DNA of 64,000 bases from Octopus vulgaris. Its lineage: Eukaryota. Shown here piece by piece: positions 1 to 30,104 of the stretch; position 1 is the first letter of the stretch, and every line of letters starts with the position of its first letter. The notes under the pieces were generated by a model. That model did no database searches, was not told the origin of the DNA, and saw only the letters and a list, made by a program, of their open reading frames with translations. The DNA lies in contig OX597828.1 of NCBI GenBank assembly GCA_951406725.2, positions 39,804,001-39,868,000 on the forward strand. The letters are read 5' to 3'. The position numbers and the translations under genes are program-made.

Positions 1-1990
1 AACAAATAAAAAGGGGCCAAGAACAGATCCCTGTAGTACACCAGATGTCATCTCATAGGGTGAAGAGTGCTGTCCTAGAACTGTGACAACCTCTTTTCGG
101 CCGAAAATAAAGGACTTCAACCAGTTATAGAGTTCGTCTCTTATGCCCATCCGTGACTGTGATGAAATCTGGGTCGATACTTTTGACGTAAAAGTCAAAA
201 AGATGCACCTTGTTGCATAAACTACGGGCCTTCAAGAACAGCAGTTTGTATCTGGATTTCAGATGATGATATACAGGGGATGGCTGATTGTTCTTGGTTA
301 GTTTCCCAAGATTTTTGTATTGCCAGTTGTTGTTGTGGGTGCAGTTTGCTCAGTCCAACTGGTATCCCTTATCCACGACTCACCAGACTTGACAAATTTC
401 CAGATTTGCCCATCATCGCGGAGGCTAAAACTTTCTTGTGGCACAGAGTTGCGATTTAGGGAAGCTACAGATCTTAGCTTTGGGCATACATCAGGTGGTA
501 GGCCAGGACGTGCCCTAAAGCTGATTCTGTTGTCGCGCCGAGCTCTATCAGCAGCCAGATGGAATGCTCGCGCCTCAGTAAAGTTTGTAAACATCAGCCT
601 GATTAGCATGGGGTGGGATCCTGGTCGGCCAAGGCAGAAAGCACTTTGGGGGGGGGGGGGGGCACAGCTAAGGTCCTCAGATGTGTTTCTAATGAATGCC
701 TGCAGATCTACCACATCTTCCGGCACTCCGATGGCTATTAATTCATGAGTGGTTGGTTCAGCAACTCCCTCAATGCGTTGAGGTTCCGTACGAGCTACAG
801 GTAGGTTGCTGAGCAAGGCACTCCGACATGACCCCTCGCTGTGAGTTTTCGCACAGACACTGGTTCTGATTCCTGCTACTTCACGACTCAAAGCAGAAAT
901 CATTCGTCTAATTTCTGCAACTTCTGTGCTGATGGTCGATTTCTGCTTTAGTTGAGAAGTATCAGGAGAGGAGGGCATGGTTGGCTTTTGTTCCTGCTGA
1001 TGTACTTCAGCTGGAATGATCAATTTTTGTTGTCGAAGAGCAATAGAAGAGGAAGACACAGGAGGCTGTTTCTGTTTTTGTTGATGTTCTTCAACAGGAA
1101 TGGCCGATTTTTGTTGCTGCTGTTGAAGAGTGACAGGGGAGGAAGACACGGGCGGCTTTAGTTCTTGCTGTTGTTCTTCATCAATAGGCGCAGGAGTAGC
1201 TGTGTGGTAAGTAGCTTGCTAACCAGCCACATGGTTCCGGGTTCAGTCCCACTGCGTGGCATCTTGGGCAAGTGTCTTCTGCTTTAGCCCCGGGCCGACC
1301 AATGCCTTGTGAGTGGATTTGGTGGACGGAAACTGAAAGAAGCCTGTCGTATATATGTATATATATATGTGTATGTGTGTGTGTGTGTGTGTGTGTTTGT
1401 CCCCCTCGCATTGCTTGACAACCGATGCTGGTGTGTTTACGTCCCAGTCACTTAGCGGTTCAGCAAAAGAGACGGATAGAATAAGTACTGGGCTTACAAA
1501 GAATAAGTCCCGGGGTCGAGTTGCTCGACTAAAGGCGGTGCTCCAGCATGGCCGCAGTCAAATGACTGAAACAAGTAAAAGAGTAGGACTGGTTTTGGGA
1601 GACAAAGTAGTCGGTTTTTGCTGTTCAGCAGCAATGGCAGCGGAAGACACGGTTGTCGGGTTTTGTTGTTGCTGTTCTGCAGCAATGGTGGCAGGGGGCA
1701 CACAAGTCAGGCACTGAAACGACCAGTTTGGTAGCTGGACCATTTCCCAGAGTTTATCCATCATAGAAGTATGGTGTCCTTTCTTTTGACCTAGGATCTT
1801 CTGAAAGTTTGTGGCACATTGAAAGCAGATCGAAACACGACATTTACTGCATTCAACCCATCTGTTTCGGAATGAATTTTCGAGTTTTGTGCATAGATGA
1901 CAGATGTGGTTTGTTGGGCAACGTTCTATTTTAGGACAGCGACCAGTTCTGTTGCACGGCTCATCCACGGATGATACCGTGGCCCTTTTG
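1..1990 (-). mobile_element. CR1/L2-group LINE: PHD-finger ORF1 split by a SINE, plus an internally deleted ORF2
   Basis: C/H-rich PHD-like pattern at 1968-1700; Q/P-rich repeats; EN start (ARSLCNK..DFITVT) fused near 151 to RT (NWLKSF..SGVLQGSVLGP). Confidence 0.75.
1186..1585 (+). mobile_element. tRNA-derived SINE (aggcgcaggagtggctgtgtgg family)
   Basis: Pol III-like head, central (TA)n(TG)n, gtaaaaga tail; near-identical copy at 35334. Confidence 0.85.
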
Positions 1991-2175
1991 GGATCTTTTC
2001 CTTTTGCTAGACAGAATTCAACACAATTTCTAGTTAACTAAACAATTTGAAACTTCGTATACTGGTAGAATGTGTCAAAAGAAAACATTATTTTCACTTG
2101 GCTTTTTTCATAAATTTGTAATTCGTTTGTTTAACGTAGTTTAATTTTTCGAATTTTAACCAATTGTATCTCTAC
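1991..2175 (+). mobile_element. Left TIR fragment of the GGATCTTTTCC DNA-transposon family
   Basis: Matches 34358-34530. Confidence 0.75.
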
Positions 2176-3426
2176 CTTGCTGCTGCCTCTGCAACGGATT
2201 TCGCTTCCGTCGACCGCCCGGATGCTACTTGCCCCCGTTCCATTCCTTCGTCACCCTTGAAGTCACAAGGGTGGTCGTACAGCCCGTATCCACGAGGGCC
2301 TTGAACGTCTTCCCCTCGGCCTCCACGTCAATTAATGGCAGCATCTCCAATAGCACCTCTACTCGTTTGCGGGGAAAGTTTGAGAGGCAGCAACTTCCCT
2401 GCGGTCATTTTCCTGGTCGCAATCACGGGCGATGTGCCCTGTCTGCCTGCATCGATAGCAAACGGCCCTGGTTGCGTACAGTCCCGCGCCATGTGCAACC
2501 CCTGACATCTAAAACACCGACCTGAGGACGGCCGCTGTCGTTGCATGGTAGGCTTCTGTACGTCTTTCTCCGGTCGTCGTCCATCTTTACGCACCTCCGT
2601 CACCGCCATCGCTATCGCCTTCCGCCCAGAGTGTCGCGTCAACACGCGGGCTTGAGTCACAAGTTCGCTCAGCGCCATCTTTTTAATCCTGGGCAATCGT
2701 TGTAGGTGAATCCCTACATCGTCGGGGAACCCATTTACAAACGCCAGCCGCGCTGTCTCTCCAGTCCTTCTCCTGTAAACCCAGCCAGCGTCGCTAACCT
2801 TCTAACTTCTGCCACGTACTCGTCCACCTGCCCTCCTGTCCATCTGATCGTACCCAGCTTAGCAAAAGCTGTGTATTCACACTCTGTGTAGGCATCCCGC
2901 AGACGTTGCTCTAATTTTTCCTCGCTCAGGCGTTCCTTCTCCTCCATCTCAAGGTATAGCGTTAACGCGCTCCCTTCTAAATACAGTGCCATAAGACTTG
3001 CCACATCGCTTATACCTTGCAGTCTTGCCACCAGCCTGATTTTACGAATCCAGGCCATTACATTGCCTTCACCATTGAAGGGTCTGATGATGTCGCTGGC
3101 GATCCTGATTTTCGCAGACATCGTGGTGACAACTTATGTGGAGTGCCAAAATAGCTTGTGGTGCGTGCAAGAGATTCGAATATAAAGGCACCTACCTTCT
3201 CTTCACTCTGATGGAGACCCTTCAGTGGTAACGGATCCTTCAACACAGCCCGACCCGAACGCTAAAGATAGCAGCTGCTTCACCCAACCATAGTAACGTG
3301 TTCACCCGTCTTAACACGTCGACGACCCTCGTTCGAAAGGCAGAAATCACTGCTCGCGCCTGACGGCTGCCCCTTTCGGTAAACCCCAGTTCCGGTCAGC
3401 TCCCCAGCTGCTGACGTCATCCCACA
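2176..3426 (-). mobile_element. Ty3/Gypsy-like LTR retrotransposon 5' part: LTR (3137-3426), gag with Zn knuckle, degenerate protease
   Basis: 290-bp GC-rich LTR with TGTGG...CCACA ends; gag ATG at 3121; CFRCQGLHMARDC; frameshifts. Confidence 0.8.
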
Positions 3427-3785: not shown

Positions 3786-3882
3786 ACTGGCAAAAAAACC
3801 ATACGATTACTTCAAAAACATCAATATTCCTGGCCCTGAGCCATGGTTCTTTTTTGGAAATATGTTACAAGTCATGAAGAAG
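3786..3882 (+). CDS. CYP exon 2 ([32 protein letters not shown])
   Basis: ag/gt boundaries; proline-rich hinge PGPxP. Confidence 0.9.
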
Positions 3883-6800
3883 GTAGGTGGCATTGGAATT
3901 TTTCATACCCTATGTGTACCTTGTTTGATTGACTTAGATGGCTGAGTGATAAAAAAAAGTTATCATGTATACTTGCATATAGGTTGCACTATTTTTACCA
4001 AAAATTTTGATAAAATCAGGGCTGCAACTTATCTGAAGTAGATGGCAGTGTATCAATGGTGAAGTAGATCTATCAATCAGACTACCTTCATAAAGTCACT
4101 TCCACAAAATGTTTTAATATTTATAAGCAAAGTTTTGAAATAAAGGTGTATATTTGATAATATTTAACAAATATTAGTTACATTTATGTTATAAAAGGGC
4201 CATTGTAACTCCTCAGATTATAGTGTGACCTACTTTGACAACCCCAAACTAAGGGTGCGACCTATCTGCGAGTGTATACGGTAGTTAAAATTTTGCATTG
4301 TGATTGGTTTCTCAGCATTCTAAACATAATTGTTGTCGGTGTTGATTTGGCATTTATTAAAGTAGATATTTTAATTTATTTCTTGTTATTTTTATATAAT
4401 CTTTCTCTTTACTTTAAACAATAATGTTTAATGATTGGTATTTTATCATTTTGATTCAGTAAAATCAGTACCAGTAATACACTGGAAACAATTCAATTTG
4501 ACATTTTTCCTCACTTATAGAACTCCATCATCCTACATAACAATTTGAAAATAATTTTTTAAGCACGTATCAATGATCCAGAAGGGAAATTACAAGTTTT
4601 CACACTTGCAAACAATGCCATCCTTTCACACTTCTTATGCCCTCATTGAAAACAGGAAATTACAACCTCGCATTTCCTTTCTATTTCGCTCCATGTCTTA
4701 AGATTGGTTTCAAATTTTGGCATAAAGCCAGTATTTCAGTGTTCACCTGGTACTTATTTTATTGACCCTTAAAAGATGAAGGGCAAAATCAATCTCAGTA
4801 GAATTTGAACTCTGAACATAAAGACACATGAAATGTATTTTGCCTAGCATGGTAAGGTTTCTGCCAGCTTGCAGCCTTGATCCATGTCTTAATATTGATT
4901 TCAAATTTTGGTACAAAGCCAGCAATTTCGGGGGAGGGGATGAATTGATTACATTGATCCCAGCATTGAACTTGTACTTATTTTATCGATCCCAAAAGGA
5001 TGAAAGGCAAAACCAACCTCATTGGAATTTGAAATTGGAACATGAAGACAGATGAAATGCCACTAAACAAGGAAATTTCAAGGTCCCAATTTGCAATTAT
5101 TTTGAGCTGTACACACTTTGCTATTTAGAAATGCTCATATTTGAGTGCATGATATCCCATAAAGAAACTTACAAATGCTACAAAAAATACTATTCTTTTA
5201 TTCGTGTCAGCCATGTGGCTGTGGTCATACTGGAGCATTTTCTTCTTTGTACTTTTTAAAATTTACCAACCAGTAGAAACTCTTCGTTTTCATGGTTTAT
5301 ATGTGAGTGTGTGTGTATGTGTGTGTGGATAATATTGATTTCAAATTTTGGCCCAAAGCCAGTAATTTTGGGGAGGGATAAGTCGATTATTCTCACCCAC
5401 CCCACCCCCTGTGTTTGATTGGTACTTATTTTATCAACCCTAAAAGGGTGAAATGTAAAGTCAATGGTGGCAGAATTTGATTGTACTCTTTTATTCCAGA
5501 GGTGTTCTCCACACACCCATTTTCTGCTGCTTAATCCCTCCCACTCCATTATTTTTTTCTTTACTTTGTTTCTTTATAATAATATTGTGATTGGATCTTT
5601 ATGTAAATGAAACTAGATTTGTTTATTAATACAAGACTATTCATAAAAATATTATCTTGGAGGAGTGAAGAAACAAGTAATTAACCCTTTCTATTTTGAA
5701 ATTATAATTTAGTTATTCTTTTTTAGGGAATGGCAAAGTTTGACAAAGAAATGAAACAGAAATATGGAAAAGTATTAGGGTATGAACATTTTAAACAGTT
5801 TATATCTCATTCTGATGTGATGACTAAGTGTGTACATTTATTGTTTATTCCTCATGAAGTGCAATTGGGGTCTTGAAAATATATATATATGAATTTTAGG
5901 TTAGTCAAAATATATTTGCAACATATTCCAACTTACAAAGGCAAATTCACTGCAGTTGCAATGGGGAAAAGATTCTCTCTTATGTTAAAAGTGTAAAAAC
6001 CTTTTATCATAAGCACATTTCTGGCTCTTTTCTGGTTCTTTAGCCCTCCTCAACAGGGAAATACAACAGAGACATAACCCTAGGCAAATTCAGAGCCATA
6101 GCTTTAACCAAATAATGCAGTGAACATCAGTGACTACCTTGCATGAGTGGATGGAATGAAAATAGCAGTATCAGCACGAGGCAGTGATTAGGAATAGATG
6201 AACCTTAATTTAGTTAAAATATTTTTGCCACATATTTCAGCTTCAAAAGGCAAATTCACTGCAGTCACCATGGAGGAAAATAATTCTCTCTTATGATAAA
6301 AGGTGTAAAAACACCATATCAATTCAGTGCTTCCATCTAGCAGATTCCCACATGCACGCTTCTAGCTCTTTAGCCTTTCTCAATGTGTGTGTATGTGTGT
6401 GTGTGTGTGTGTCAGTGTTAATGTGGCTGGTCACATCAACTGCAGTGCCTGATTTGGCTCCTTGTCCATAGCCTGGATACATATACATACTGGAATGCTT
6501 CCACACTCACAGGATCATAAACACATGCATACCACATACATACACATGTATGTCCTTACATATTTGGTAACAGTGTCGGGGATTTATGACCATGTGTCCA
6601 GTGCAGTTGTATTGCCAGTGATATTTCTGTTTCTCTCATATTTTCTATTAATCATTGATCGTTGTTGTTCCATTAGAAATGTAGCTTTATTTAATTTCAT
6701 TTAATTTTAATCTTTAGTAAATATTTTCTTCTATTCTTTTATAGTTATTTCTTCTTAATTGTTTTATTTCCAACTTTAAATATGCTAACAGTCACTTTTT

Positions 6801-9800
6801 TTGATGCAGATAGTGTTGTGGAAATTTTACTGTCCATCCTGTCGACACAAAAACCAATCATGTTATAACTTCTGGAAGATATACAATGCAATTTTGTGAA
6901 CAGATATGAAAATTTGAATTGTAATTTTCCTATATTTTCTTACTTTTTACAGATTTTACATTTGTAATCAACCTCATATACTCATCAGTGACCCAGAAAT
7001 GGTTAAAGAAATTTGCGTCAAACACTTTGCAGTATTTACAAACAGATACGTAAGTTTACTTTTTAAAATTTAAGATGTTTTACATCCAGACATGCATCTA
7101 AAATAACATAAGCTTTCTTTTCTTGCCTCATTTACAGATTTTCAATAAGATGTGGACCTACAGCTGATTGGCATAAGAGAGTTCTCCCATTGAGTTGGCC
7201 ATAAGAAAACTGCACAAATGTTAAATAAGGAGTGAGAGATATTCATGTTGGAGAAGTCTGTTGATTATGAGAGTTTCCATTCTGTTTGTGCCTAGGTCAT
7301 TTTCTCTGCTGAAATTCTGTGGCATAGCCCAAAATGAGTGAATGATTTTGGGTACTTTAAATTATGAAATTTTGTTGCGTGTGGGATGTGGAGAAATATA
7401 CTGAAGAAGATGGTTTCAGTGAAAAGATGAGTTGTTTCTGATACGTTACAAGTACATGTGTCATCATGCATATTTAGAATATGAATTGTAGAACCAGTTG
7501 ACTTGAAATGTTATGGAGTTGGAGATCTGAGGATAGATGCATAGTACATAGATATGTAATGGGTAGTTGTGATAAGGAAGAGACCTTGCCTTGAGATGGG
7601 AACAGAGTCAATTTTGGTTTGGCAGTGGTTGGGTGTGTGGCTGAAAAATAAATTGATGGTACTTGAAGTATTCACGTGTTGAAAAGAGACAATTGTTGAA
7701 GACAAAACTAACTGATGTAAAAGATTTACAAATGTAAAATATTCAGTTACTCCACTAGCATTATCAGCATATTCAGATGAATGTGAGAACCAAGAAGTAT
7801 TTGTGAGTGATGATGGATTATTATGGGTTATTATGAGATATATAATTCTCTTACCACTAAATTGATACAAAGTTAGTGTCTGATATGGCTGAGGTTGGGT
7901 TTGTAAATGAAAGAAACATCAAGTGTATGTGGAGGATTTGTGTGTTGATCATAGTAATTACCAGGGATGAGAGTAACTGAATTTACACTTGTGAAAATTC
8001 AATTCCTCTCCCAATTGCATCAGTGTGATGTGATGATTGTATCAGGCGAGAAGTGTTTGTGAGCGAGGATATCAGAATGGATTATTATGACATGTATAAT
8101 CCTTTGGCCATGATAACATGCATTTATCATAAACATCTTTCTTTACACTTGTTCAAGATAAAGGCTGATGGAATCAATTGAAGCTTCCCTCCAGACTTCT
8201 AGCAGTAAACATGGTCATATCATCTCTGATAGCAATGTTGATAAAATTCAACAACACTAAATTGTTTAATCATCACTCATGGATCTTAGAATAAACCTTG
8301 TACACGTCTGATATGACAAAGCATTTGCCATGACCCTAGGGTAATGGGTTAATTTCTAGGTCCTCATCAATTACCAGGATCATTGATTTTCAATTACTTG
8401 GATATTAAGCTAATATGACTATAGCTTTTACCAATGCAAAAAGATTTTATTCACTGACAAACAATGCTGTTTGTCAGTGGATTATCCTCACCAAAATTTG
8501 ATTTGCAGATTCAGAAATCTTTTTGACTTTTCTCATTTTCCCCACAAAATGTGACATATTTCTCCACTTTTCTCTCTATTTTCATTTCAAAGTAAGATGG
8601 AATTATTTCTTTGTAATATCTTCTTCATGGTGTTTTCACATTCTTTATAGGATGTATTTCCACAAAACAAAATTAGTGATAGATTCATAAGTTTTCTCAA
8701 AGACAATCATTGGAAATTTACCCGTACTGTACTACTCCCAACCTTCAGTACCAGTCACTTAAAACAGGTAAGATCAATTCTATTTAATTTCATATAGTCT
8801 TAATTTTAATGAAAATTCTTTCCTCTTATTCTAAATTAAAAATATGTTGTTAATACATTTAAATATTATTTTTCCATTCCTTAAATCATTAGTTGATAAA
8901 CAAGAGGCTCTATAGCTTTGGTTGAAGGTAATAAGCTGTAATTATCTAACAAATCATAATGATAATAGTTTTACAAAGAGCATCTGTTGTGTCAGGGCAA
9001 GACTCCTCTTTACAGCAAACTCAGATATTGTTGCTACCAAGCTTATTTTCCATATACTATATGGAGAAAGTCTTCAATGCTGACACATTGACTTAATAAA
9101 AGCCTATAAGATATACATTTTCATCATAAGATTTCACCACATTTATTTATGTCAATTACATAACTTTATAATTGTGTTGGGGAGAATGAATTTGATTCAA
9201 CTAATTAATATACCTTTTTTCTAAAGGCCTATGTAGGAGGACTGATCTTTACAAATGTTTGCTGGCTTTCAATGACCTGAGGTATTAATGTATTTCAGTA
9301 ATTCAATGACTGATGGGAAAGGAATTCCAGATTATTGGTTCACTGGGAAAGCTATTGGACTGAATGGTTAGTGCAGCTCTTAAAGAAAAGATACAGTAGG
9401 TGTGACAAGAGGAGGTGTTTCATGTGGCATTAAGCAGAGATAGTATACAACAACTAGCTTCTGTCAGAAGACCAATGTAGACCGTATATGTAGTGAGAAT
9501 TGTTAAAATGAGGAGATAACATGAATCATATTTTCAAGAATTATTAGAAAATCAACTGTCTTAAATGTCTACAGCAGTAAAACTAAAACCATGAGAAAAG
9601 AATAAGAATAATTTTGGGAATTTCAATTTCTTTCAGACAATGGGAATTATGAATAGTGTTGTGAAAAACCTGGAAGAAAACTTTTCTCTTTTTGCTGACA
9701 GTGACAAAGCTGTTGAAATTAAACAGTGAGTGACTCTGTTTAAACTGGTTTACTTTTGTGTTGTTCTTGTTGTTATGTGTAAGTATGTAAGAGTGTTTTT

Positions 9801-12800
9801 GTATTGATGTCAAATAAAGTGTTTATCCTTAACCAAGTTACACAACCATGTTTGTATAAACTATTATAGCATCATCATCATTCTTTAATGTCCATTTTCC
9901 ATGCTGGCATGGGTTGGACAGTTTGACAAAAGCTTGCAAGCCAGAGAGCTGCACCAGGTTCCAGTCTGATTTTGCTTGGTTTTTACAGCTGGATACTCTT
10001 CCTAATGCCAACCACTTTACAATGTGTGCATTTAGCATGGCACAAACACAATCGCTTTTATATGGCACACGCACAGGACTTTTGCAGGCCAATCCCCTTC
10101 ACCAGCGAATGCTACCATAACACTTCTGCTGTGGAGGATAGGTCTTCTTGAGTACAGCAAGGTGCCAGGTATCTTGGTCCTTTGTCATCTCTTTCTGAAA
10201 GGATCAGCATTCTGAGGCAGAGTAAGGATTGTACTGTCTATGCCAAAAAGCACCAGTGTAGGTATTTGACCCATTCAAGTGAAAAATTACAAGCAATTTG
10301 TTAATTTTATAATAAGCAGAAAAAAAAAAATCATGTCTTTCTCACTATGCATGATAGCTTTGTATTTGGAGAGAAAAACTGGAATTGATACATTTCCAAT
10401 AATTATTATCAATGTAAGATATGTGAAATAATTTAACCTGTAAATTGAATCTATACCATCACGTCACATACTAGTAACATAGCTTTTGTTTTAGAATGTA
10501 CTCAATGCACAACAATAGTTCCCAATTAAAATGTATTTAAAAGAGCAGAACAAAGTGAGTTTTAGTATTATTTTAGTTTCTTATTTCTTTATTTTAATTT
10601 CAGAGTATTTTCACATTACACAGTTGATATGATTGCATCTACTGCATTTGGCATCGAAGTTAATTCACAGAAGAATCCAGATCATGCATTAATAAAATGC
10701 TTTGACAAATTCTTTTATGTCAATTTTTATGACCCGATCACTTCTGTTCAAAGTAAATATTTACTTATTCTCTTAAGATATGTTATTGAATGAATATGAC
10801 CTCATTGTTGCTAACTGTGTCTATTGCAGTGACACACATCATGTGTGTGCTTGTATCGATGTATGTTTAAATGAGTTTCTGTATGCGTGTGTGTGTAAAT
10901 TTTAACCTCTATACATTAGATAAAAGACTGTATTTATGTTAAGTGTACAGAAAAGAAAGAAAAGCCAAACTCAGACTTCATTGTAGTCATTTTCATCTCT
11001 CACTGAATGATGCTTCAGCTAGTTGTTGTTAATTTATCTATGCTATATGTTGGTGCACCGGTCTATATGGGCAGATAACAGGTTGGAATGAGCACTCCTG
11101 TGCTCAGGTGTTCTGCCCTGATCAATGATGCCTAATAACACAAATAATATCACAATATCCCTTTATTTTGGTCACAAAATAATCTGAAATTAAGCTCCTT
11201 TTTCGGCTTTATATATAAATAAATCATTGCACTTCACTCTTCAGATACATGAATTATAAAACACTAACCTTTTGAAACTCTCTAGAAAGTCTTAAATTGA
11301 AGCCTTTTGTTTTCTCTCCAGAAAATTCCACTTTCTATTGAACAAATCTAGAGATAGCAAGGCACCTAGCCTGTCTTTCATTGCATTTACAATATTTACC
11401 TCTACAAAATCAACACAAAACAGGCAAAAACAGTTTCATCTGAAATAGAATGTAAGCTTGTTGAGAACATTTGGATCTGTTTTAATTGTTGATTTCACTA
11501 AAAACAAAGGAACTCTCAATAAGTTTCTAGTTGTGATCAGTGAGTTTATTTATTAACATGTACATCATTCATTTCAAGAAAATTGCTAAGGTTTATCGGT
11601 TTATTACATGGAATACAAATTTTTATCGCCAATATAATCAACAGTACTAATTAGCCTGTGCATTTGTTGTCTCAGTATTATTTCCAGTAATTCCAAAAAT
11701 TCTGGGTACTTTCGGAATCAACACTAACTTTTCCAGTTCATTGCACTCTATCTCTATGTTTTCCAAAGATGTTATAGCAGAACGGAGAAAAAATAAAACG
11801 GTAATATTTGAAATTTATTTAATGTTATTGAGCATTTCATAGTATGTTTTCAGTCAATGTGTTTTAAAATGTTTTTTATAACCAGCAAGAAAAACATTTT
11901 TTTCTAGTGAGGAAAGGAGATTAGACAGTGAGAATTAGAATTATATACTATCTACTGAAAAATATGAAATATATGTTCTGCATTTCCTTATTACAGTTTC
12001 TGTTTAACTAAATTTATAAGAAAATAAAAAGGAGTTTTCTATGTTACTGCTCTGTTTATCATATGTCTATAGAATACCAAAACGCAATTTTGCTATATCA
12101 CAATATATATCTCGTTCATATTAATGTTCCACTTGTCCAAAAAAATTTACCAGTAAAATCCAGTGATTGGATATTTCTAAAATTAGTAGTTAGAATGCCT
12201 AATATTTATATTAAAACCTCAGTAATTTTATTTAGCTGTTTAATATTTCTAGATTTTCTTGTTGGTTTTAGGTAAGACGTGATTTTCTCCAACTTTTGTT
12301 GGATGCAAAACTTGAAAATGTTGATAAAATTGATGATGATATGAAACACGAACTGGAAACACTCACATTTGACAACATGCAAAACAGAGGCAAGTAAATT
12401 TTGATTATTTGAAATATAGGTTTGATATACAAAATATATATGAACATTTTAGATGCAGTATTCTGCAGAAATTCACTGAGAAAAGACCAAAGCCTTATTA
12501 AGTGGGAAAACAGATAAATCACAAATCCCTTCAAGGAGACAGCCCTGCTCAATATGTAAGAAATGTGTTAGTAGAAACTACTTAGTGCAAGCTTTGAACA
12601 CATTGAAGGTGTAGTGGTGTTATGGGAAGTTTAACAGAGAAAATAGACTTTGCGTGTAGCAAATGTGTGGGTACAATAAACACTAAGAATGTGCAGAGAA
12701 CAGACTTCTTGCAATGCCCAGGAATCCTTAGAAGTAGTAGATAGCTTCTGTTACATTTGAGACCAAGTTAGCAGTGATGGAGGAAGCTCTAAAAGCATAG

Positions 12801-15900: not shown

Positions 15901-18900
15901 TTTTTAAACTAAAGAAGTTTATTATGCTTAGATCTAATTTTTTTACTTATATTTTTTCATGATATTTTACCTCATAACTTTCTTGATAGAAATTTTTGTT
16001 GCATGGGATTGAAACTATGAAATTCGTCATGCATTCCTCTACCATTGAATCTATGATAAATATATTTTGCTTTTAAAATAAATAAGTTATTTATTTTAAA
16101 AGCAAGTTACACCAGTGACATATATTAAAAGTCCCCTTATAGAACTATATTCATAAAAAAGTATAGAACTATATTATAAGGTTGTCCCAAAAGTTCGTAG
16201 AAAGTCTTGGAAAATAATGGTCTCTATTTTGAGGAATAATTTTTGTTGTTTTTGTTAGTACTTGGCGAGTAAAAATTCAATTTTCGCAAGTGTTTACGAA
16301 CTTTTGGGACAACCTAATGTCACCCTCAAATTTGGGAAACAAGCACTCATAACATTTTTCTTTTAAAACTTCATTGCATGAGACTAATATCAGGAAAGTC
16401 CTCAAATTGAGCTCAATCATTTAAGCTTAATTAATTGGGTTTTTTTTAACTAAAACAGTTAATTATACTTAGATCCAATTTTTTGCCTTATATTTTACCT
16501 CAACTTTTTTGATAGAAATTTTTGTTGCATTGGATCAAAACTATGAAGTTTATTATGCTTTCCTCTACCATTAAAGCTACGATAAATATATTTTGCTTTT
16601 AAAATAAATAAGTTATTTAGATCTAAACTTGATTGGAGGCGTTACTTGCTCTCCTATAATGTTGCTAAAACTTCTGATGTAAACTTTTTTCTACTGGACC
16701 AAATGTAAATTTTTTATGCCAAAATGTAGCTAGGGACCAACCCTCTTCAAAACTGTTAATAGTTTTCAATTTCATTAAGAACTGAATTAGCGACAATGCT
16801 CTGAAGATACTGCATGTGAGCAAAATGCTGCCTTAAGAATATTATTCAACTACCACCATAGTTGAATATCACTCGGGGCTAGATTAAGACCAATAGAGCC
16901 CCTAAGCACTTAAAAGATTTTGATGTCCCATCAAAATATATGCAATAATAAACCATAAAGTAATTTTTATTTTTCAAAATGAAACAAAAAACTAACATTA
17001 AAATGGAAAATAAGGTTTGTTTTTATATACTTCCACTTCATTTATATTTGAAAAGTTTTCTCCTGCATTCTTTAATTGCAAAATCTTATTAGATCCTCAC
17101 TATGACACCATGAACACTTTGAAATTATATTTCCAATCATATAAACAGCTTCAAATATTATTTTAGCAAGTTTGAAGTAGTTTCTTTTGTGCCATAGTCC
17201 TTTTACCATTTCCATGATTCCCTGCTTCCCTTGAGGCCCTAAGGATGTTCTTATTTTGTTTAATGGTTAATCCAGTGCTGTGAACACATTTACAATGTGG
17301 ACTCTGCTGGCACAATATGATGAAACAAAAGTTACCATTCAGAAGACATGAACAATCACCAGACTGAGACAAACACATATACTGTCAAACTCTGTATAAA
17401 ACGAAGCACAGTTCTTTAAGCAACAAAATTGGATCCTAAAGGGTAGAAGAGAATTTGAAAGAGGAAATACATACTTAGCATCTCCATTTTGTAAAGACAT
17501 ATATTGGCGAAGTAAAAACGATTTAGCAATTTTAAAGACCACTGATCAAGTGACAATGAATCAAAATCAATGAACGATCAGCCATAACAAGCCATAAGAA
17601 GTAAAATGACATCCATTTAGCAATAATTTGTAATGTTAATTACTCATTGCTTTGCACCTGAAATTTTTTTAAGATATTTTGGTGTCTACTACATATGACT
17701 GCATTGTTGTAATCAAAACATGTGTGTGTTGCTTAACTGTTCTGTTTGTAATTATTCCTACTGGCTTTATAAACACCCAAAAATTATATCTGCTCACTTC
17801 CATTACTATATATTTATTGCCAGCTGCAAGTTCTATGTGTCTCTACCAAAAAGAATCTCTGAATCCTTAGTTCAGGATATTTCAATCTTACTATATAGCA
17901 ACATAAGCACAATTTATCATCTTTTATTAATGCAGGTTTAACAGATGAAGAAATTGTTGCACAGGTGGTGTTGTTCTTATTTGCTTCACACTTCGCAACT
18001 TCAACTGCGTTGTCGTTTTTTTCATATATCCTTGCCACTCAGCCAGAAATACAGCAGAAGGTATATGATGAAGTGATGGATGTCATTGGTGACGTAAGTT
18101 TCCCTAAGATTTTGGCACAAGACCAGTAATTTGGTGGGAGGGGCTAAGTTGATTACATCAACCCCAGTACTTGGCTGGTACTTATTTTATCAACCCTGAA
18201 AGAATGAAAGGCAAAAAACACCTGAGTGGAATTTGAACTCAGAATATGAAGATGGATAAAATGCTGCTGAGCATTTCACCTGGTGTGCTGGCGAGTCAGT
18301 AACCTAATAATAACTGAATAATTCATAAAGCAGAGATGTTGTAGTGATGTGTACTGCTGTATTATGTGATAAACAGTTTTGAGTTCAAGTAATATGTATT
18401 GTATTGTAGAATTGCACTTGTGTTAAGACATAATGCAAGAGATCTGCAATTGGTTAGCTCATCACTAGTGAGACTCCAAAACTTTGGTTGTCTGTGACTT
18501 AAAACTTCCAGTTATAGTGAATAGAAATGATTAGAGAAATTTAGCATTAATTATAACTAATTACTGGTTTAGATAGACTTCTAAAGTAATTATTTTAGAA
18601 GTCTATCTATGCTAGTGATACATTTCTAACTATAGAGGCTACTCAGCTGCATATGTCTGAGGTGATTGTGATATAACTGCTTTGTGTGTGTATGTATATA
18701 TATATGTTTTTATATATATATGTGGAGGTGCAATGACCCAGTGGTTAGGGCAGCGGACTCGTGGTCTTAGGATCGCGGTTTCGATTCCCAGACCGGGCGT
18801 TGTGAGTGTTTATTGAGCGAAAACACCTAGAAGCTCCACGAGGCTACGGCAGGGGGTGGTGATCCCTGCTGTACTCTTTCTCCCACTCTTTCTTCTGTTG

Positions 18901-21900
18901 GCCTGCTCGCTTAGCCAGTGGGGTGGCATCATTCGAAGGTTAAAACAATGCGAACACATTGTGACCAGCGATATGTAACAACATCTGATGGACTGGTCAG
19001 TCACGTGATATATATATATATATATGTATATTGACTAATATTATTGGGATATTAATATAGATAGAATAATTATTTTGGTTGCAAAATTAAAATATGAACA
19101 AAGACAATTGTGATTACTCAGAAAAGTGTGGAAATGACAGTAGCTATTTTGAATTTAATATCACCATAATCCTAAACTGTATTTTGTTAAATGCTTATAT
19201 TTCACTTATTTTATTTATGATTCAATAGCAAATCAGTGTCATGAATTGAATTTGATATTTATTTGTTTGCAGGAAGAACCTATGGTTGAAAATTTGAACA
19301 AACTAACTTACCTTGATATGTGTATGTCTGAATTACTTAGAATGTATCCTCCATCACTCAGGTAGTGTTACAATGTTTACATCTGCATGAAATAATTAAA
19401 TAATGTTTGTTGTAAAGAGGTGAGCTAATGTGATGCATTATGAATTTTATTTATTACTATCAGGAATATTCCACATTAAATTGTATCAACTGTATGGTTT
19501 GTTAATAGAATATATTCTACTTAAATACAAATGAAAACTATAGAGAAGGGATATAAGACTACTTGTTGTTGATGGCCTTCTTTTAAGAGAAGAGAGCAAG
19601 TAATTGAAAAGTGAACGAACAATTTTGTAGTGAAAATTATAAAGGAAAGCTGCAATATTTAATGGCATATCTCCCATTCTGTAACTCCCTATTTGGATCA
19701 ATATTCTTCCCTTATTGTTTTGAAAAGTGTGTTCCACAAGAAATATACAATAGTACCAAAAATGTGTTTGATAAGAAACACATAACAGGTCCAAATAATA
19801 TAATAGTAGCATAAGAAATGTATGATAGTACCAATGTTCATATCAATATTCTACACTTGGTGTGAAAAATATGTTCCATAAGGAATACATAATATTACCA
19901 AATATATAATAATAGCAATGGCATATCTCCTGTTCTGTAACTCCCTATTTATATCAATACTTCCGCTTATTGATTTTTAAAAATATGTTCCATAAGAAAT
20001 ATATATTAGTACCAAATTTTATAGCCTTTCATTACAACAAATTATGACATCATATGTTTACATGCGCAAAATCTACTTTGTTGTTGTGGTATAATGTAAA
20101 TGTACATTGCATGCCAGACAGGGGGAGCCCCAAAGGAGATCTGTATGGAGAATTGGACATTGGCACAAGAGCACAACCTCATCTTTGTTTCAAGTACGTC
20201 TGCAAGAGAGATATGAAGTTGATGGTTCTGGACATTCTGAGAGGGGAGGAGACTGCAAATGATCGCCTTGCTGGAGACAAATATTGCAAAAGTGTGTGAA
20301 GCAAGTGGAAGAGAAACAGGAACTTGCAACCAAAGAAAAGTGCACTCGACGAAAGGAAAAACCAGTAGCACCTGTAGAAAGCTTCTTTAAATGCAATCGT
20401 TGTATGCATGATTGCCACTCCCATGTGGGCCTATACAACCACTCACATGTGGGCCTATACAGCTACAACACACGCTGCATCACCAGCAGCAGCTGACATG
20501 ATTTCTTCAGGCATAGATCCATGGTCTCTCAAGACCGACAGATGCCTACAACTAACATAAATGTAATAGTCAGTCATTGCCCTAATAACAGAACATCCTG
20601 TGCATAAAATGTATGAGTTCATATTCATGTCTCAAAGAGAAAGCTACATTATCAAACGAAAGTGAAGTAATGATGTGCTTATAATTGTGTTCTATTGCAA
20701 TTATGGTCTGTACATTATTGAGGCAGTCTCAGACAAACATGAAGTGAGAATCTAGAAGAGTTTCTCCAGTGTTCTTATTATATCTGAATTGTGTCTGTGA
20801 TTCAGCTGTGATGTGTCCATATCAGACCATCACCTTCAAATATATAGTGATCAAAACTCTGTTTAAGTACTGAGTCAATAATTTTAACTTCATTTACTTT
20901 CAAGAGTTTGCTAAAATATGGGAATATATTTTATTGCCTTTGATGTGTAAATATATCTGTACATTGATTTCAAATTTTGGTACAAGACCAGCAATTTCAG
21001 TGATCGGTAAATCAATTACATTGGCCCTCAGGGCTCAGCTAGTATTTATTTAATGAATCCGGAGAGGGTGAAAAGCAAAGTTGGACTGGAGGAATTTGAA
21101 CTCAGAATGTAGCATTTTGCCCAACACAAAACATTTTCCCTGTTTTGTTAATGATTGTGTCAGCTAGATGCTGTAATATATATCTGTATATTTTATGGAA
21201 TTATTCTTAGGTATTAAATATTGCAATTAATTAAGAATTTTCCCTATTGTTCATTTATACAGGCTTCAGAGGTATGCCAAGGAAACTGTTAAGATAAAGG
21301 ACTGGATAATTCCGAAAGACATTCCTATAGACATATCTATTTATAGCCTTCAACATGACCCTGAATACTGGCCAGAACCACATAAGTTTATTCCAGAAAG
21401 GTAGGTCAAATTATTAAAATTTCGATATAAGAAAACAAAGAAATCCAATATTGATATATTTAAATATAAACTGAATAATAATCAATGAACTTATCTTGGT
21501 AAAGGTTAAAATATATTTGAATAGCCATATAAAATAGTGATTTAAAAAAAAAAAAATCTATATAAAAGCATTCTACATGCATGCGTGCACACACACACAC
21601 ACACATAAACACACATGTGTGCATGTGGATGCATAACATGTATGCACATACACACACATTTACCAAGTATCTAATAACCATATAGTTAGGCTATTGTACT
21701 CTACAACCCCAAACCTGCAGATAACATGACTGGGAATAATAACTTTACACTAAAAAATACAAATGTTGTACATCCTCTAATATCTGATGGTCAACTTCTT
21801 AATTCTACTGATCCTGATTTCCAGCATCATACATTCCCAATTCCTCTTCTATCCGTGCAGAATGACCTTCAATGAAACCCAACTGGCTGCTCTAACTACA

Positions 21901-27800: not shown

Positions 27801-30104
27801 ACATTGCTCTGCTACCACAGCACGATCTTCTCTGACAATGTTTTGCAATCCAAAATACTTCAAGCTTCTGGTCTTCACATCGCAGGCCTTTCTCCTTTCT
27901 GCTTCTCCCCTGGCCAAGCATACCTGTCTTCTAACCTCCCTCATAGCTACCTGGTATAGTTCTTTGCTACAATACAAAATACACATAGATGAATAACGAT
28001 ATATTATGCACCTTACAAGGTAAATTCTTGTTCCAAAATTGTATGTGTTTTATATTACTTTTTAGCGTATCGCAAAACTGTCATGATTTACAAATCATTT
28101 GGTATTTTCTAATAACGGTACTCTAATCTTCAGATTTGCACCTGAAGCAAAAGACAAATTGAATCCTTATACCTTCTTACCATTCGGCATTGGACCAAGA
28201 ATGTGTATAGGCACAAAAATGGCAAGATTGGAATTTAAGCTTGCTATCGCTACCATAATCAGAAAATATAAATTTGTGAAATCTCCGAAAACTGAGGTAA
28301 GATAATGTGAATATGAAATCTTAATATATAAAACAGAGTTTGTGTGTGTGTGTGTGCATGGACATATGTTCCTTATGGATTTGAAAACCTAGTTGCCGAT
28401 TTTGGTGTATTAGGTATCAAATGATTCAGTAATCTTTCATCGACGAAATAAAGTAAGATTTTTGCAACTCTGCCTCCCTTATCTTTATGTCTTACATCAA
28501 GCATAATGAGAAAATGTTTAAAATATTTTACTAGGGAATGAAACTTTGAAGTTATACCGTCAACTTCATTAGTATTACTTAGTAGATAATCTAATGTGAA
28601 GTATTTTTGTGTTTTGTTTAGCCCAGCGTTACCTCTGATATAGCAGACCCATCGAATATCTTTTTTTTCCTTCCTGAAATACTGTAGATCTGTGTCTTTC
28701 TTTTGATGAAAGGTTGTGTTTCAAGAGAGATTTGGTTGCTTTCTGTAGTAGCTCAGGTTACTACAGACACACCTGTGTGTGTGTGTGTGTGTTTTGTTGT
28801 AGTGAAAAAAATACTTTTTCTCAGAATATTTTGCACAATAATTTTGTAAGAAATCTGGACATCTTTCTTACTGCTAACCATTCAGCTTCAAAAAACAATT
28901 GTTAATTGCTGGAAGTCAAGTAGACTGAGATGTACATATACTGTTATCGTATAGATTGGAAGTTCAATATGAAATTTGAACTCGTTATCTTGTGGTTAGT
29001 AATCCATTACCTTAAATTTGAAACCATTAAGTCTTTAAACATTATTATACTGGGTTTAGTCTTTTGACTATCGCCATGATAGGGTATCACCTTCAAAAAT
29101 GTAATTGACCATACTGACCTCATTACGTATTTCAATCTGTTATTTATTTGATAGATCTCTGCTTGATGAACTGCTAACTTTGAGACATAATGGGGCACAA
29201 TACTCGATTTTACAACAAATGTAAACACACACACATATTGAGTGCAATAATGGCTGTGGTTAAAAAGTTTGCTTCCCAGCCCCATGGTTCTATGTTCAAT
29301 CCCTCTGTATGGTACCTTGAGCAAGTGTTTTCTACTATAACCCTAGGCCAACCTCAGACTTGTGACTGAATTTCGTAGATTGAAACTGCAGCATTGTTCA
29401 TCAGAAAATGACTGAAAAACATGTTTATAAAGAAGAGTTGTTTGCTTCATACTCCACATAAGCTGGTTCTGTCCATAAGAAAGGAACAAATAATACAATG
29501 TGGCTGTAGGTAATAACCCCCCCGGGCAACACCAGGGTACATTGCTTGTATAATGTAATTTCAAACAATGATTTATTGTTACGAAATGTCAGTTACGAAA
29601 GGTGAGTGTAGACAATACAACTGGGAATTGAAACTGGATTGCATGTTGGCTGGCTGAATGCATAATTTATTACTGTACCCTCAGCCCCACTAGTATAGTT
29701 AGAAATTAATTTGTAACTCACCTGGGGACATGGGAAATCGACATTTGAAGTATTAATGCATCTTCCAAAGTGAAGTGAATCTTAAGTGTATTGTGATGAC
29801 TTTGACCATTTGAAATCTAAATTTTGATTGAACAAGGTAAGAATTCTTCTCTTATAAATGAGTTTTTGTAACTGTTATAAATATTAGAAGATTTCATATT
29901 TTGACTGAACCTGAAATTTTAAAGAAATATCATTAGTTGTATGATATTGATTGTCACACTTTATCGTTGATCAACAATTGAAATATCTTAATGCTCACTG
30001 ACTTTATTTCCTGGTAATTCTCTTTCTAGGTTCCTCTTAAGACAGGAGGGCAAATATTTCTTTATCCAGTGAATGGAATATGGTTGAAGGCTGAAAAGCG
30101 ATAA
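3786..30104 (+). CDS. Cytochrome P450, clan 3 (CYP3A-like); 13 coding exons, ~488 aa in window; N-terminal anchor exon not in window
   Basis: Exons 3786-3882, 5727-5779, 6953-7049, 8651-8767, 9637-9725, 10604-10752, 11676-11800, 12272-12389, 17936-18093, 19273-19361, 21263-21400, 28134-28296 and 30030-30104 join in one frame without stops. Motifs: IPGPEP hinge, WKFTR (C-helix), ELLR (ExxR), [14 protein letters not shown] (heme Cys). Confidence 0.93.
4690..5485 (-). mobile_element. Cluster of degenerate SINE fragments (family of 47210-47436)
   Basis: Repeated 'ggtacttattttatcgaccc..aaaggatgaaaggcaaa' and 'tttcaaattttggc' segments. Confidence 0.65.
5727..5779 (+). CDS. CYP exon 3 ([18 protein letters not shown])
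   Basis: 53-bp exon, ttttag/gtatga, KYG motif. Confidence 0.9.
6953..7049 (+). CDS. CYP exon 4 ([32 protein letters not shown])
   Basis: tacag/gtaagt; clan-3 pattern [14 protein letters not shown]. Confidence 0.92.
8651..8767 (+). CDS. CYP exon 5 ([17 protein letters not shown])
   Basis: tatag/gtaaga; WxxxR and PTFS motifs. Confidence 0.92.
9637..9725 (+). CDS. CYP exon 6 ([30 protein letters not shown])
   Basis: tttcag/gtgagt; 89 bp; phases match neighbouring exons. Confidence 0.85.
9870..10220 (-). mobile_element. SINE with RTE-like (ATG)n tail
   Basis: catcatcat..tccatgctggcatgggttggac motif shared by more than 10 copies in the window. Confidence 0.7.
10604..10752 (+). CDS. CYP exon 7 ([22 protein letters not shown])
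   Basis: tttcag/gtaaat; clan-3 E-helix D.IASTAFG. Confidence 0.92.
11676..11800 (+). CDS. CYP exon 8 ([10 protein letters not shown]...[11 protein letters not shown])
   Basis: ctcag/gtaata; open frame and phases fit. Confidence 0.85.
12272..12389 (+). CDS. CYP exon 9 ([13 protein letters not shown]...), GC donor
   Basis: DFLQLL motif; AG|GCAAGT donor needed to keep frame with exon 10. Confidence 0.85.
12500..12830 (+). mobile_element. Degenerate RTE-type LINE fragment
   Basis: Translates to a decayed [13 protein letters not shown]....IVARVRIG..K segment typical of the post-RT region. Confidence 0.55.
13355..13565 (+). mobile_element. SINE with (ATG)n tail
   Basis: Same family as 40410-40657 and 48040-48449. 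Confidence 0.7.
14601..14686. repeat. 29-bp minisatellite, 3 copies (tggaaaagttcaggacaagttattacact)
   Basis: Direct head-to-tail copies; third slightly diverged. Confidence 0.9.
15013..15585. mobile_element. Rearranged copy of the GGATC-TIR element: ~310-bp foldback (15013-15322) plus right TIR
   Basis: Arms are reverse complements; contain TAACCC/TTAGGG-like runs; ends in ggaaaagatcc. Confidence 0.8.
15822..16620. repeat. ~270-bp direct duplication (15822-16095 / 16363-16620)
   Basis: Both copies run from ttaaaacttcattgcat to aataaataagttattt. Confidence 0.8.
16177..16317. mobile_element. Tc1/mariner-type MITE
   Basis: TIRs aggttgtcccaaaagttcgta / tacgaacttttgggacaacct. Confidence 0.75.
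17936..18093 (+). CDS. CYP exon 10, I-helix ([27 protein letters not shown]...)
   Basis: tgcag/gtaagt; aligns without gaps to the CYP3A I/J helices. Confidence 0.92.
18724..19008 (+). mobile_element. tRNA-derived SINE (ggaggcgcaatggcccagtggttaggg family)
   Basis: A/B-box-like tRNA head; related copies at 37820, 41480 and 57569. Confidence 0.8.
19273..19361 (+). CDS. CYP exon 11, K-helix ([15 protein letters not shown])
   Basis: ttgcag/gtagtg; ExxR motif. Confidence 0.92.
19655..20020. repeat. Diverged tandem duplication, ~256-bp period
   Basis: aatggcatatctcc..ttctgtaactccctattt at 19661 and 19917. Confidence 0.7.
20060..20555 (+). mobile_element. RTE-clade LINE 3' end
   Basis: [29 protein letters not shown], a terminal C2H2-like knuckle and an RTE-type 3' tail. 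Confidence 0.75.
21263..21400 (+). CDS. CYP exon 12 (IPKD...[16 protein letters not shown])
   Basis: tacag/gtaggt; meander region. Confidence 0.93.
22524..23149 (+). mobile_element. Internally deleted mariner element
   Basis: TA-flanked TIRs ttgggttgtctagaaagtttgtgccgattt / aaatcggcatgaactttctggaaaacccaa; HDNARP and [15 protein letters not shown] motifs. Confidence 0.9.
23881..23928 (-). ncRNA. Minimal type I hammerhead ribozyme motif (Penelope-like)
   Basis: GTCT-CTGATGA-aGGGATAT cacta ATATCCCa-GAAA-C-AGTT-G-TA-AGAC on the minus strand. Confidence 0.65.
26182..26400 (-). mobile_element. Penelope-like GIY-YIG endonuclease C-terminal fragment
   Basis: LASYVWHL....[10 protein letters not shown]....PY.NG...CKIC..E pattern; a similar, more decayed piece lies on + at ~22020-22300. 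Confidence 0.65.
26770..27965 (-). mobile_element. RTE-type LINE RT fragment (pseudogenised)
   Basis: YKDKSDAL...[26 protein letters not shown] motifs with stops and frameshifts. Confidence 0.8.
27462..27681. mobile_element. piggyBac-type MITE nested in the RTE LINE
   Basis: TTAA TSDs at 27458 and 27682; TIRs ctctttcgttac / gtaacgaaaggg; removal restores the LINE frame (ESLLNVN). Confidence 0.8.
28134..28296 (+). CDS. CYP exon 13, heme-binding loop ([13 protein letters not shown])
   Basis: ttcag/gtaaga; FxxGxRxCxG motif. Confidence 0.95.
30030..30104 (+). CDS. CYP terminal exon ([24 protein letters not shown])
   Basis: ttctag acceptor, stop TAA, typical clan-3 C-terminus. Confidence 0.88.
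   Translation, partial: VPLKTGGQIFLYPVNGIWLKAEKR

Follow-up and report, generated by a model that had tools for sequence, protein, structure and literature searches.

A clan-3 P450 gene at the locus

The 64-kb window analysed here, a stretch of 64,000 nucleotides of Octopus vulgaris DNA in which positions are counted from the first letter, carries a cytochrome P450 gene on its plus strand. Its 14 coding exons, joined by their coordinates, give one open frame of 512 aa; 13 of the 14 lie inside the window and exon 1 lies ~2.7 kb upstream, so that the 13 exons of the initial annotation were correct for the window and one short for the gene. Every acceptor is AG and the donors are GT, with the sole exception of GC after exon 9. 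Intron 9 (window 12389/12390 and 17935/17936) is GC-AG in this gene and in both of its tandem copies described below, and the joint is present in contigs of sequencing runs X1 and X2. As initially annotated, the WxxxR (WKFTR), ExxR (ELLR) and PERF motifs and the heme-ligand loop are intact, and no stop interrupts the frame. The features of the gene, including its substrate recognition sites (SRSs), are as follows.

Exon 1: G000:C15:39801232-39801302, outside the window; start codon and membrane anchor
Exon 2: 3786..3882, plus strand; proline-rich hinge IPGPEP
Exon 3: 5727..5779, plus strand
Exon 4: 6953..7049, plus strand; heme-binding Arg105 at its end
Exon 5: 8651..8767, plus strand; B'-C region (SRS1) and WxxxR; highest divergence between the tandem copies
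Exon 6: 9637..9725, plus strand
Exon 7: 10604..10752, plus strand; E and F helices
Exon 8: 11676..11800, plus strand; G helix, SRS3; carries changes specific to the window copy
Exon 9: 12272..12389, plus strand; H helix and H-I loop; private in-frame 12-nt deletion at its end; GC splice donor
Exon 10: 17936..18093, plus strand; I helix, SRS4
ASHFAT motif: 17983..18000, plus strand; Ala322, Ser323 (Gly site), His324, Phe325 (acid site), Ala326 (Thr site), Thr327
Exon 11: 19273..19361, plus strand; K helix, ExxR
Exon 12: 21263..21400, plus strand; end of SRS5, start of the meander, PER of PERF
Exon 13: 28134..28296, plus strand; heme-ligand loop and helix
Exon 14: 30030..30104, plus strand; SRS6, stop codon TAA

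The central feature is the I helix. Six-frame translation confirmed that the plus-strand codons at 17983-18000 (GCT TCA CAC TTC GCA ACT) read ASHFAT, a sequence that does not fit the canonical (A/G)Gx(D/E)T acid-alcohol pair. The replacement of Gly, acid and Thr by Ser, Phe and Ala was likewise borne out by alignment of the O. sinensis orthologue P0006 (XP_036365728), whose S/H/F/A stand opposite G/Y/E/T of the solved human CYP3A4 in a gap-free I-helix alignment. P0006 matches PF00067 (E-value 5e-96), and its AlphaFold2 model (pLDDT 91.7), with a continuous helix at 313-344, superposes on CYP3A4 with a TM-score of 0.85 and on CYP3A7 with a Z-score of 43; the best PDB matches were CYP3A4, CYP3A5 and CYP3A7. 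The heme ligand, the propionate-binding Arg/Trp and the fold are conserved. By fold, heme motifs, nearest relatives and tree position, the window gene is a clan-3 (CYP3-like) cytochrome P450. P450 families are named at 40% identity or more to named members, and identity to vertebrate CYP3A-labelled proteins and chains is 34–39%, below the threshold for CYP3A.

The closest database protein, P0001 (CAI9733871.1), is labelled Octopus vulgaris. This public 697-aa model is a chimera of an upstream tandem copy (copy B, below) and the window copy with exons skipped, and we found no correct public model of the window gene. Elsewhere in the window, one of eight non-P450 open reading frames (ORFs) scanned against Pfam gave a match, to a reverse transcriptase; it is a broken LINE-type fragment (PF00078, 33077-33924, plus strand). 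Several other ORFs (e.g. 298-3133, minus strand) resemble retroelement remnants and have no Pfam match.

The motif is transcribed unedited and is rare

We examined 8 of 21 listed sequencing runs, taking exon-exon joints, rather than the records, as the sign of RNA origin. ASHFAT was found unedited in 5 of the 8, from four studies; the other three (X7, X15 and X18) yielded no matching contig, which speaks neither for nor against expression. In X1 and X2 (study P1), exon 10 is identical to the window and is joined 9-10-11-12, with the exon-9 deletion, which is private to the window copy, included. X3 (organism B, study P2) differs by one base at window 18008, giving the same Ala330Glu as P0006; this change lies one helical turn past the lost Thr and places a new acid on the same helix face. 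X8 (study P4) and X9 (study P5) each hold an ASHFAT contig with one silent difference plus a contig reading AAHLTT, at a depth of 2–4; the silent base, at window 18024, is that of copy B, which hints at recombinant or converted alleles at this depth. The contigs join exons at the predicted splice sites. Thus the window gene is spliced into mRNA with its motif unedited, as the initial annotation had proposed to check, and the ASHFAT frame is open and transcribed in both sister species.

As had been stated for A-to-I editing, A-to-G changes cannot yield Glu or Thr from TTC and GCA; within the motif only His to Arg and, at the following Thr, Thr to Ala are possible. RNA editing as a repair of the motif is ruled out by these codons, and the motif is unchanged in the X1 and X2 contigs (contigs drop rare variants). 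No alternative exon 10 with a canonical sequence emerged either: six-frame translation of the whole window contained no [AG]Gx[ED]T[TS] motif, and a hidden Markov model built from 19 paralogous exon-10 peptides matched only the three known copies in 244 kb. A genome-wide DNA search for exon 10 gave at least three matches. Considering that the motif is unaltered in contigs of independent runs and present in a second species (P0006), that editing is unable to restore Glu or Thr and that no alternative exon was found, an assembly error or a correction at the RNA level is exceedingly improbable.

The combination is also uncommon among relatives. Among the 20 other best exon-10 matches in the same genome (L004-L023), 19 keep both acid and Thr. 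Across 293 I-helices of relatives outside the family (from 238 proteins), the acid is present in 270 and Thr or Ser in 275. Twenty-one rows lack the acid, and six of these were visibly misaligned and dropped; 14 of the 15 left have Thr or Ser, and a single one lacks both. An animal P450 in which both the acid and any polar residue over the iron are missing is thus a rarity (1/293 related I-helices).

The initial annotation had further drawn attention to a His placed near the distal pocket. This part did not survive comparison, as the canonical AGHETT sister already has the His, as do 22/293 relatives, and His is reported at the same site in CYP4F8 and LyoI (PMC13049297, PMC12535388). His324 is thus no evidence of new chemistry, and we rejected it as a new catalytic residue since it was inherited from the AGHETT ancestor. 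From helix geometry, His324, two residues before the Thr site, would point ~160 degrees away from it.

Tandem copies and origin of the motif

The window gene is one of three tandem copies on the same contig, and is designated copy C. The other two are near-identical, lie upstream of it and stand head to head ~9 kb apart.

Copy A: G000:C15:39721377-39751934, minus strand; AAHLTT; stop at codon 12
Copy B: G000:C15:39761087-39790825; AAHLTT; exon-10 donor GT changed to AT; exon-5 acceptor shifted

Lesions are confined, in the assembly analysed, to the two copies that keep Thr, and copy C, which lacks it, is free of them. They describe the state in this assembly, and AAHLTT transcripts exist in other runs. 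Introns of copy C differ by 2.76% from A and 2.69% from B. Introns 8 and 9 of A and B are only 0–0.4% apart, which suggests recent conversion or uncollapsed haplotypes; with an intron divergence of 1.9%, A and B could be partly uncollapsed haplotypes, and the window copy is unaffected.

O. bimaculoides has one annotated copy, which reads AAHLTT (XP_014772532), and a 67-aa fragment (P0279) also reads AAHLTT and differs nearby. O. sinensis has P0006, which reads ASHFATSTE, and a second model, reading AADLTT, part of which looks frameshifted. The Thr-less ASHFAT was thus seen only in two sister species, in the window copy and its O. sinensis orthologue. The closest paralogue is canonical, reading AGHETT (P0101, P0247, L012; XP_014788122, XP_036362604), and cuttlefish relatives (the P0249 cluster and its neighbour in the tree, the P0010 cluster) have AGYETT. 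In a quick IQ-TREE analysis (LG+G4) of 39 hand-picked clan-3-like rows, which left out the large octopus cluster on contig C26 for want of full-length proteins, the octopus AGHETT paralogue comes out as sister of the family (SH-aLRT support 99), and canonical cuttlefish-type proteins stand beside them within a clade confined to cephalopods (98). In word-limited searches (three protein, one profile-library), the only members retrieved came from the three named Octopus species and one fragment.

The initial annotation had cited thromboxane synthase (CYP5A), also of clan 3, as a P450 lacking the Thr. Descent from a common CYP5A ancestor was rejected, as a clade uniting the family with thromboxane synthases was excluded by the approximately unbiased test (p-AU 0.00029, same 39 rows) and the human enzyme is described as keeping the acid (AGYEI, PMC13049297). 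One cuttlefish protein, P0249 (CAE1143300.1), is labelled "TBXAS1"; it reads AGYETT and falls in the cephalopod clan-3 clade, apart from vertebrate thromboxane synthases, and its label looks like an annotation transfer.

Nor is ASHFA supported as one conserved unit. Judging from the sequences, the motif likely arose in two steps, with the acid likely lost first and Thr later in one young duplicate. In the simplest order, the His was present in a canonical ancestor; Gly to Ala and Glu to Leu would have followed at least 34 million years (My) ago; and a duplication a few My ago would then have been succeeded, in copy C and before the 2.5-My split, by Ala to Ser, Leu to Phe and Thr to Ala. Two findings speak against this order: O. 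bimaculoides falls with A/B in the tree (support 99), and copy C shares residues 115, 123 and 133 with the outgroup paralogue. Parts of C may therefore be older and partly homogenised by conversion.

Selection and rate of change

Coding DNA was available from one species, so the divergence tests compare copy C with copies A and B. SRS limits were those of CYP3A4, transferred through the P0006-CYP3A4 alignment (84/512 residues). Relative to O. bimaculoides, differences fall at 7/104 conserved and 68/412 variable columns (P = 0.012, or 0.0015 minus the two motif columns), and the two ASHFAT orthologues differ at 0/44 near-invariant columns. The paucity of changes at conserved columns indicates that the acid-less protein is under purifying selection.

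Within the SRSs, non-synonymous divergence (pN) of C is 9.2% from A and 9.7% from B, compared to 2.7% in introns (P ~1e-5 and 2e-6). This excess persists without SRS4, and 10 of 13 polarised copy-C changes lie in SRS regions; minus both SRS1 and SRS4, no significant excess is left. At several positions the paralogues of one species agree with each other (residues 368 and 385 in O. sinensis, residue 502 in the window's species), a pattern suggestive of gene conversion outside the SRS blocks; the C-type SRS blocks are distinct in both species.

Divergence to O. bimaculoides is 14.6%, compared to 4.4% and 3.7% for two related P450s. Taken together, these comparisons indicate that the fold is under purifying selection, yet the gene evolves ~3–8 times faster than related P450s. 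The initial annotation had named a private motif with neutral dN/dS, or missing expression, as grounds for doubting its view. This applies in part: transcripts were found and a second species carries the motif, yet taken on their own its three changes fall short of significance (SRS4 alone, P ~0.11).

What the window copy may do

The initial annotation proposed non-monooxygenase chemistry. What stands is that the normal acid-alcohol relay is unusable. Our leading reading, a tentative one to which we give roughly 35%, is that the window copy dispenses with O2 and reductase and acts on a preformed peroxide, be it H2O2, an endoperoxide or a fatty-acid hydroperoxide. The acid-alcohol pair is reported to deliver protons for O-O cleavage, with Thr-to-Ala mutants losing effective hydroxylation (PMC10293830, PMC9112060). 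In the proposed scheme, the acid and the groove Gly would have been lost first (at least 34 My ago), and the duplication a few My ago would have let one copy lose Thr; the ferric heme would bind the peroxide oxygen of the substrate and cleave its O-O bond. A proton relay would then not be needed, and the residue over the iron could serve to set specificity. A parallel would be the use of Thr versus Ile, Val or Ala as a specificity site among fungal allene oxide synthases (AOSs). Loss of Thr on a short branch together with substrate-site changes, in an intact copy, fits best if Thr was no longer catalytic.

The review PMC13049297 gives SRS4 as FATcFN in plant AOS, WATQGN in prostacyclin synthase (PGIS), ASxxT in 8R-AOS and AAxxI in 8S-AOS, with an axial V/A in 9S-AOS, and relates the axial residue of AOSs to stereo-preference. 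When the axial residue is set on the Thr site, the AOS and PGIS motifs in that review all lack the groove Gly, the acid or both, and differ at the axial position. By analogy, the joint loss of acid, Gly and polar axial residue may be read as the pattern of peroxide-rearranging enzymes; in the register of the same review, the CYP74/CYP8A1 feature of an SRS4 that keeps neither the acid nor the groove Gly recurs here as Phe and Ser. Lipoxygenase-like exons gave nine matches in the genome, on contigs C10 and C20. A narrower version, in which octopuses independently evolved a reductase-independent lipid-peroxide isomerase from a CYP3-like enzyme, converging on the AOS I helix (FASHFA versus FATcFN), is rather unlikely. 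If true, it would mean a route, in a protostome, to oxylipins resembling thromboxanes or allene oxides, with an enzyme whose residue above the iron is still diversifying, as in the fungal R- and S-specific synthases.

Several observations weigh against peroxide use. Ala326 occupies the site over the heme iron where an Asn would be expected, and the heme loop aligns gap-free to CYP3A4. CYP74 enzymes have a nine-residue insertion in this loop, which is absent here. The six-residue register to AOS is our reading of the review rather than a superposition, and in the same source Asn is dispensable in several AOSs (PMC13049297). A stricter-than-usual search found no lipoxygenase match on the contig of the window gene, its matches being on other contigs. 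Most basic residues on the proximal face are retained, which would allow reductase binding. Among characterised enzymes, bacterial LyoI (AGH(I/V/L)TT) comes nearest to the ancestral motif; it is described as an NADPH/ferredoxin-driven hydroxylase (PMC12535388), and acid-less CYP114 as a redox-partner-driven one (PMC10293830). The divergence data add to these points: outside the SRSs, pN of C against A and B is 2.4–2.6%, equal to the 2.7% of introns (A and B being broken copies); the SRS excess is mostly SRS1 (11/57 sites), a region with an elevated number of synonymous differences as well; SRS4 by itself falls short, as given above; and the two sister species differ at 17/512 residues (3.3%), compared to 2/334 (0.6%) and 2/503 (0.4%) in two other P450s.

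The same rates could signal relaxed constraint: the heme protein encoded by the window copy would then have little or no activity, as a ligand-binding pseudoenzyme or the product of a decaying gene, and Thr would have gone by drift once the acid was lost. This possibility, which we consider unlikely but next in order, draws on the ~3–8-fold protein divergence relative to two related P450s, the non-SRS pN close to that of introns and the weak signal in SRS4, as well as on the stop at codon 12 of copy A, the broken exon-10 donor of copy B, the frameshift-like stretch in the A/B-type model of O. sinensis, the private deletion in the window copy and Ala330Glu in the I helix of its orthologue. It fits poorly with the uneven spread of the changes (9–10% pN in SRSs versus 2.7% in introns, P ~1e-5, also without SRS4), with C-type SRS blocks that stay distinct in both species despite sharing elsewhere, with the absence of differences at the 44 near-invariant columns, and with a frame that is open and transcribed in both species. 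If the gene is decaying, the case is one of ordinary P450 birth and death. Doubtful to a similar degree and ranked just behind is an oxygenase for one substrate, driven by cytochrome P450 reductase (CPR) and NADPH, in which protons would arrive via a substrate hydroxyl or ordered water, aided by Ser323 and Thr327. Its appeal is that the ancestral state is not exotic (15/293 relatives are acid-less, 14 of these with Thr or Ser), that the membrane anchor and proximal K92, K97, K128, R131, K144, K440, K442 and K462 are kept, and that Ser was gained on the same branch on which Thr was lost. A point against it is P450eryF, whose Thr site is Ala but whose acid is retained. LyoI (AGHITT; kin AGH-V/L-TT) is reported to hydroxylate with NADPH/ferredoxin in <12 min and to become inactive when the acid is restored (PMC12535388), and CYP114, which lacks the acid, to need a redox partner (PMC10293830). 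Acid loss with Thr kept is hence compatible with ordinary redox-partner catalysis; these precedents, however, keep Thr and Gly and the window copy keeps neither, and Thr-to-Ala mutants are described as typically losing effective hydroxylation and releasing H2O2 (PMC9112060).

Far less probable is a desaturase driven by reductase, on the model of the sterol C22-desaturases CYP710/CYP61, which have FLF(A/S)xxA in the I helix too. For CYP710A, SRS4 is given as F(L/M)F(A/S)QDA(S/T)(S/T)S: the groove Gly is absent and the Thr site is Ala, but the acid is kept as Asp, where the window protein has Phe (PMC9368853). The likeness is confined to the young copy, no shared ancestry is indicated and the fold is nearest CYP3A. 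We therefore rank a peroxide user first, followed by a relaxed gene or pseudoenzyme, a substrate-assisted oxygenase and a CYP710-like desaturase; the odds for these readings are judgements, and the figures are close.

The natural stepwise series AGHETT, AAHLTT, ASHFAT and ASHFATSTE (O. sinensis), the last three 85–97% identical, allows a direct test of the need for the acid-alcohol pair and of a monooxygenase scaffold moving to other chemistry. Such a shift has been inferred for thromboxane synthase but is not known to have been caught in progress. If the peroxides used are those of lipids, the gene would point to new octopus oxylipin signals.

Other non-canonical P450s

Another clan-3 P450 in the same genome, L022 (G000:C26:31049744-31049893, minus strand), has the motif AAYENT: the acid is retained, and the Thr site holds Asn, the residue found there in PGIS and plant AOS. 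Proteins of O. bimaculoides, O. sinensis and O. vulgaris agree in this motif, and the gene evolves slowly (2/503 and 17/455 differences). Going by this conservation, L022 may be a better candidate for unusual chemistry than the window gene. In the P0128 cluster (Logan proteins, 515 aa) of the cephalopod clade, 4/5 members read AGQHTT, with His at the acid site, as in CYP51. At least 16 canonical clan-3 exon-10 matches (L004-L021, mostly G000:C26:0.70-2.49 Mb) are clustered on C26, one of them reading SGYETT.

Comparison with known P450s

No paper on this octopus P450 family was found in searches judged from their listings, which took in few subscription papers and no supplements; a name for the gene may exist in P450 lists that accompany cephalopod genomes as supplements. 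The gene represents a clan-3 octopus subfamily with the double loss in two species. Vertebrate CYP3A enzymes (human CYP3A4/3A7) have the same fold and heme motifs and an I helix that aligns gap-free, at ~36–38% identity; they read AGYETT in place of ASHFAT, and the octopus gene belongs to a cephalopod-only clade. Thromboxane synthase CYP5A1 is, like the window gene, a clan-3 protein, and the human enzyme is listed as non-polar at the Thr site (AGYEI) while keeping the acid and Gly (AGYE), neither of which the window copy keeps (PMC13049297). Fish proteins labelled as thromboxane synthases read AGYET[TS], with Thr kept.

The LyoI motif AGH-(I/V/L)-TT matches the octopus ancestral AAHLTT except at Gly. 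LyoI and CYP114 are soluble, ferredoxin-driven and Thr-keeping; the window copy, lacking Thr, does not carry a LyoI-type motif. CYP710/CYP61 share FLF(A/S)xxA and Ala at the Thr site, but belong to an unrelated clan with Asp at the acid site, so that their (A/S)QDA corresponds to SHFA in the window copy. AOS and CYP8A1 differ from the window gene in clan, in the axial Asn, in the heme-loop insertion and in dioxygenase fusion or linkage, and for the octopus protein a comparable activity is only predicted. Where they come closest is in the I helix itself: the AOSs (plant CYP74A and the fungal 8-/9-AOS domains) and prostacyclin synthase CYP8A1 are also described as lacking the acid and mostly the groove Gly, and their FATcFN (plant AOS) and WATQGN (PGIS) stand beside FASHFA of the window copy (PMC13049297).

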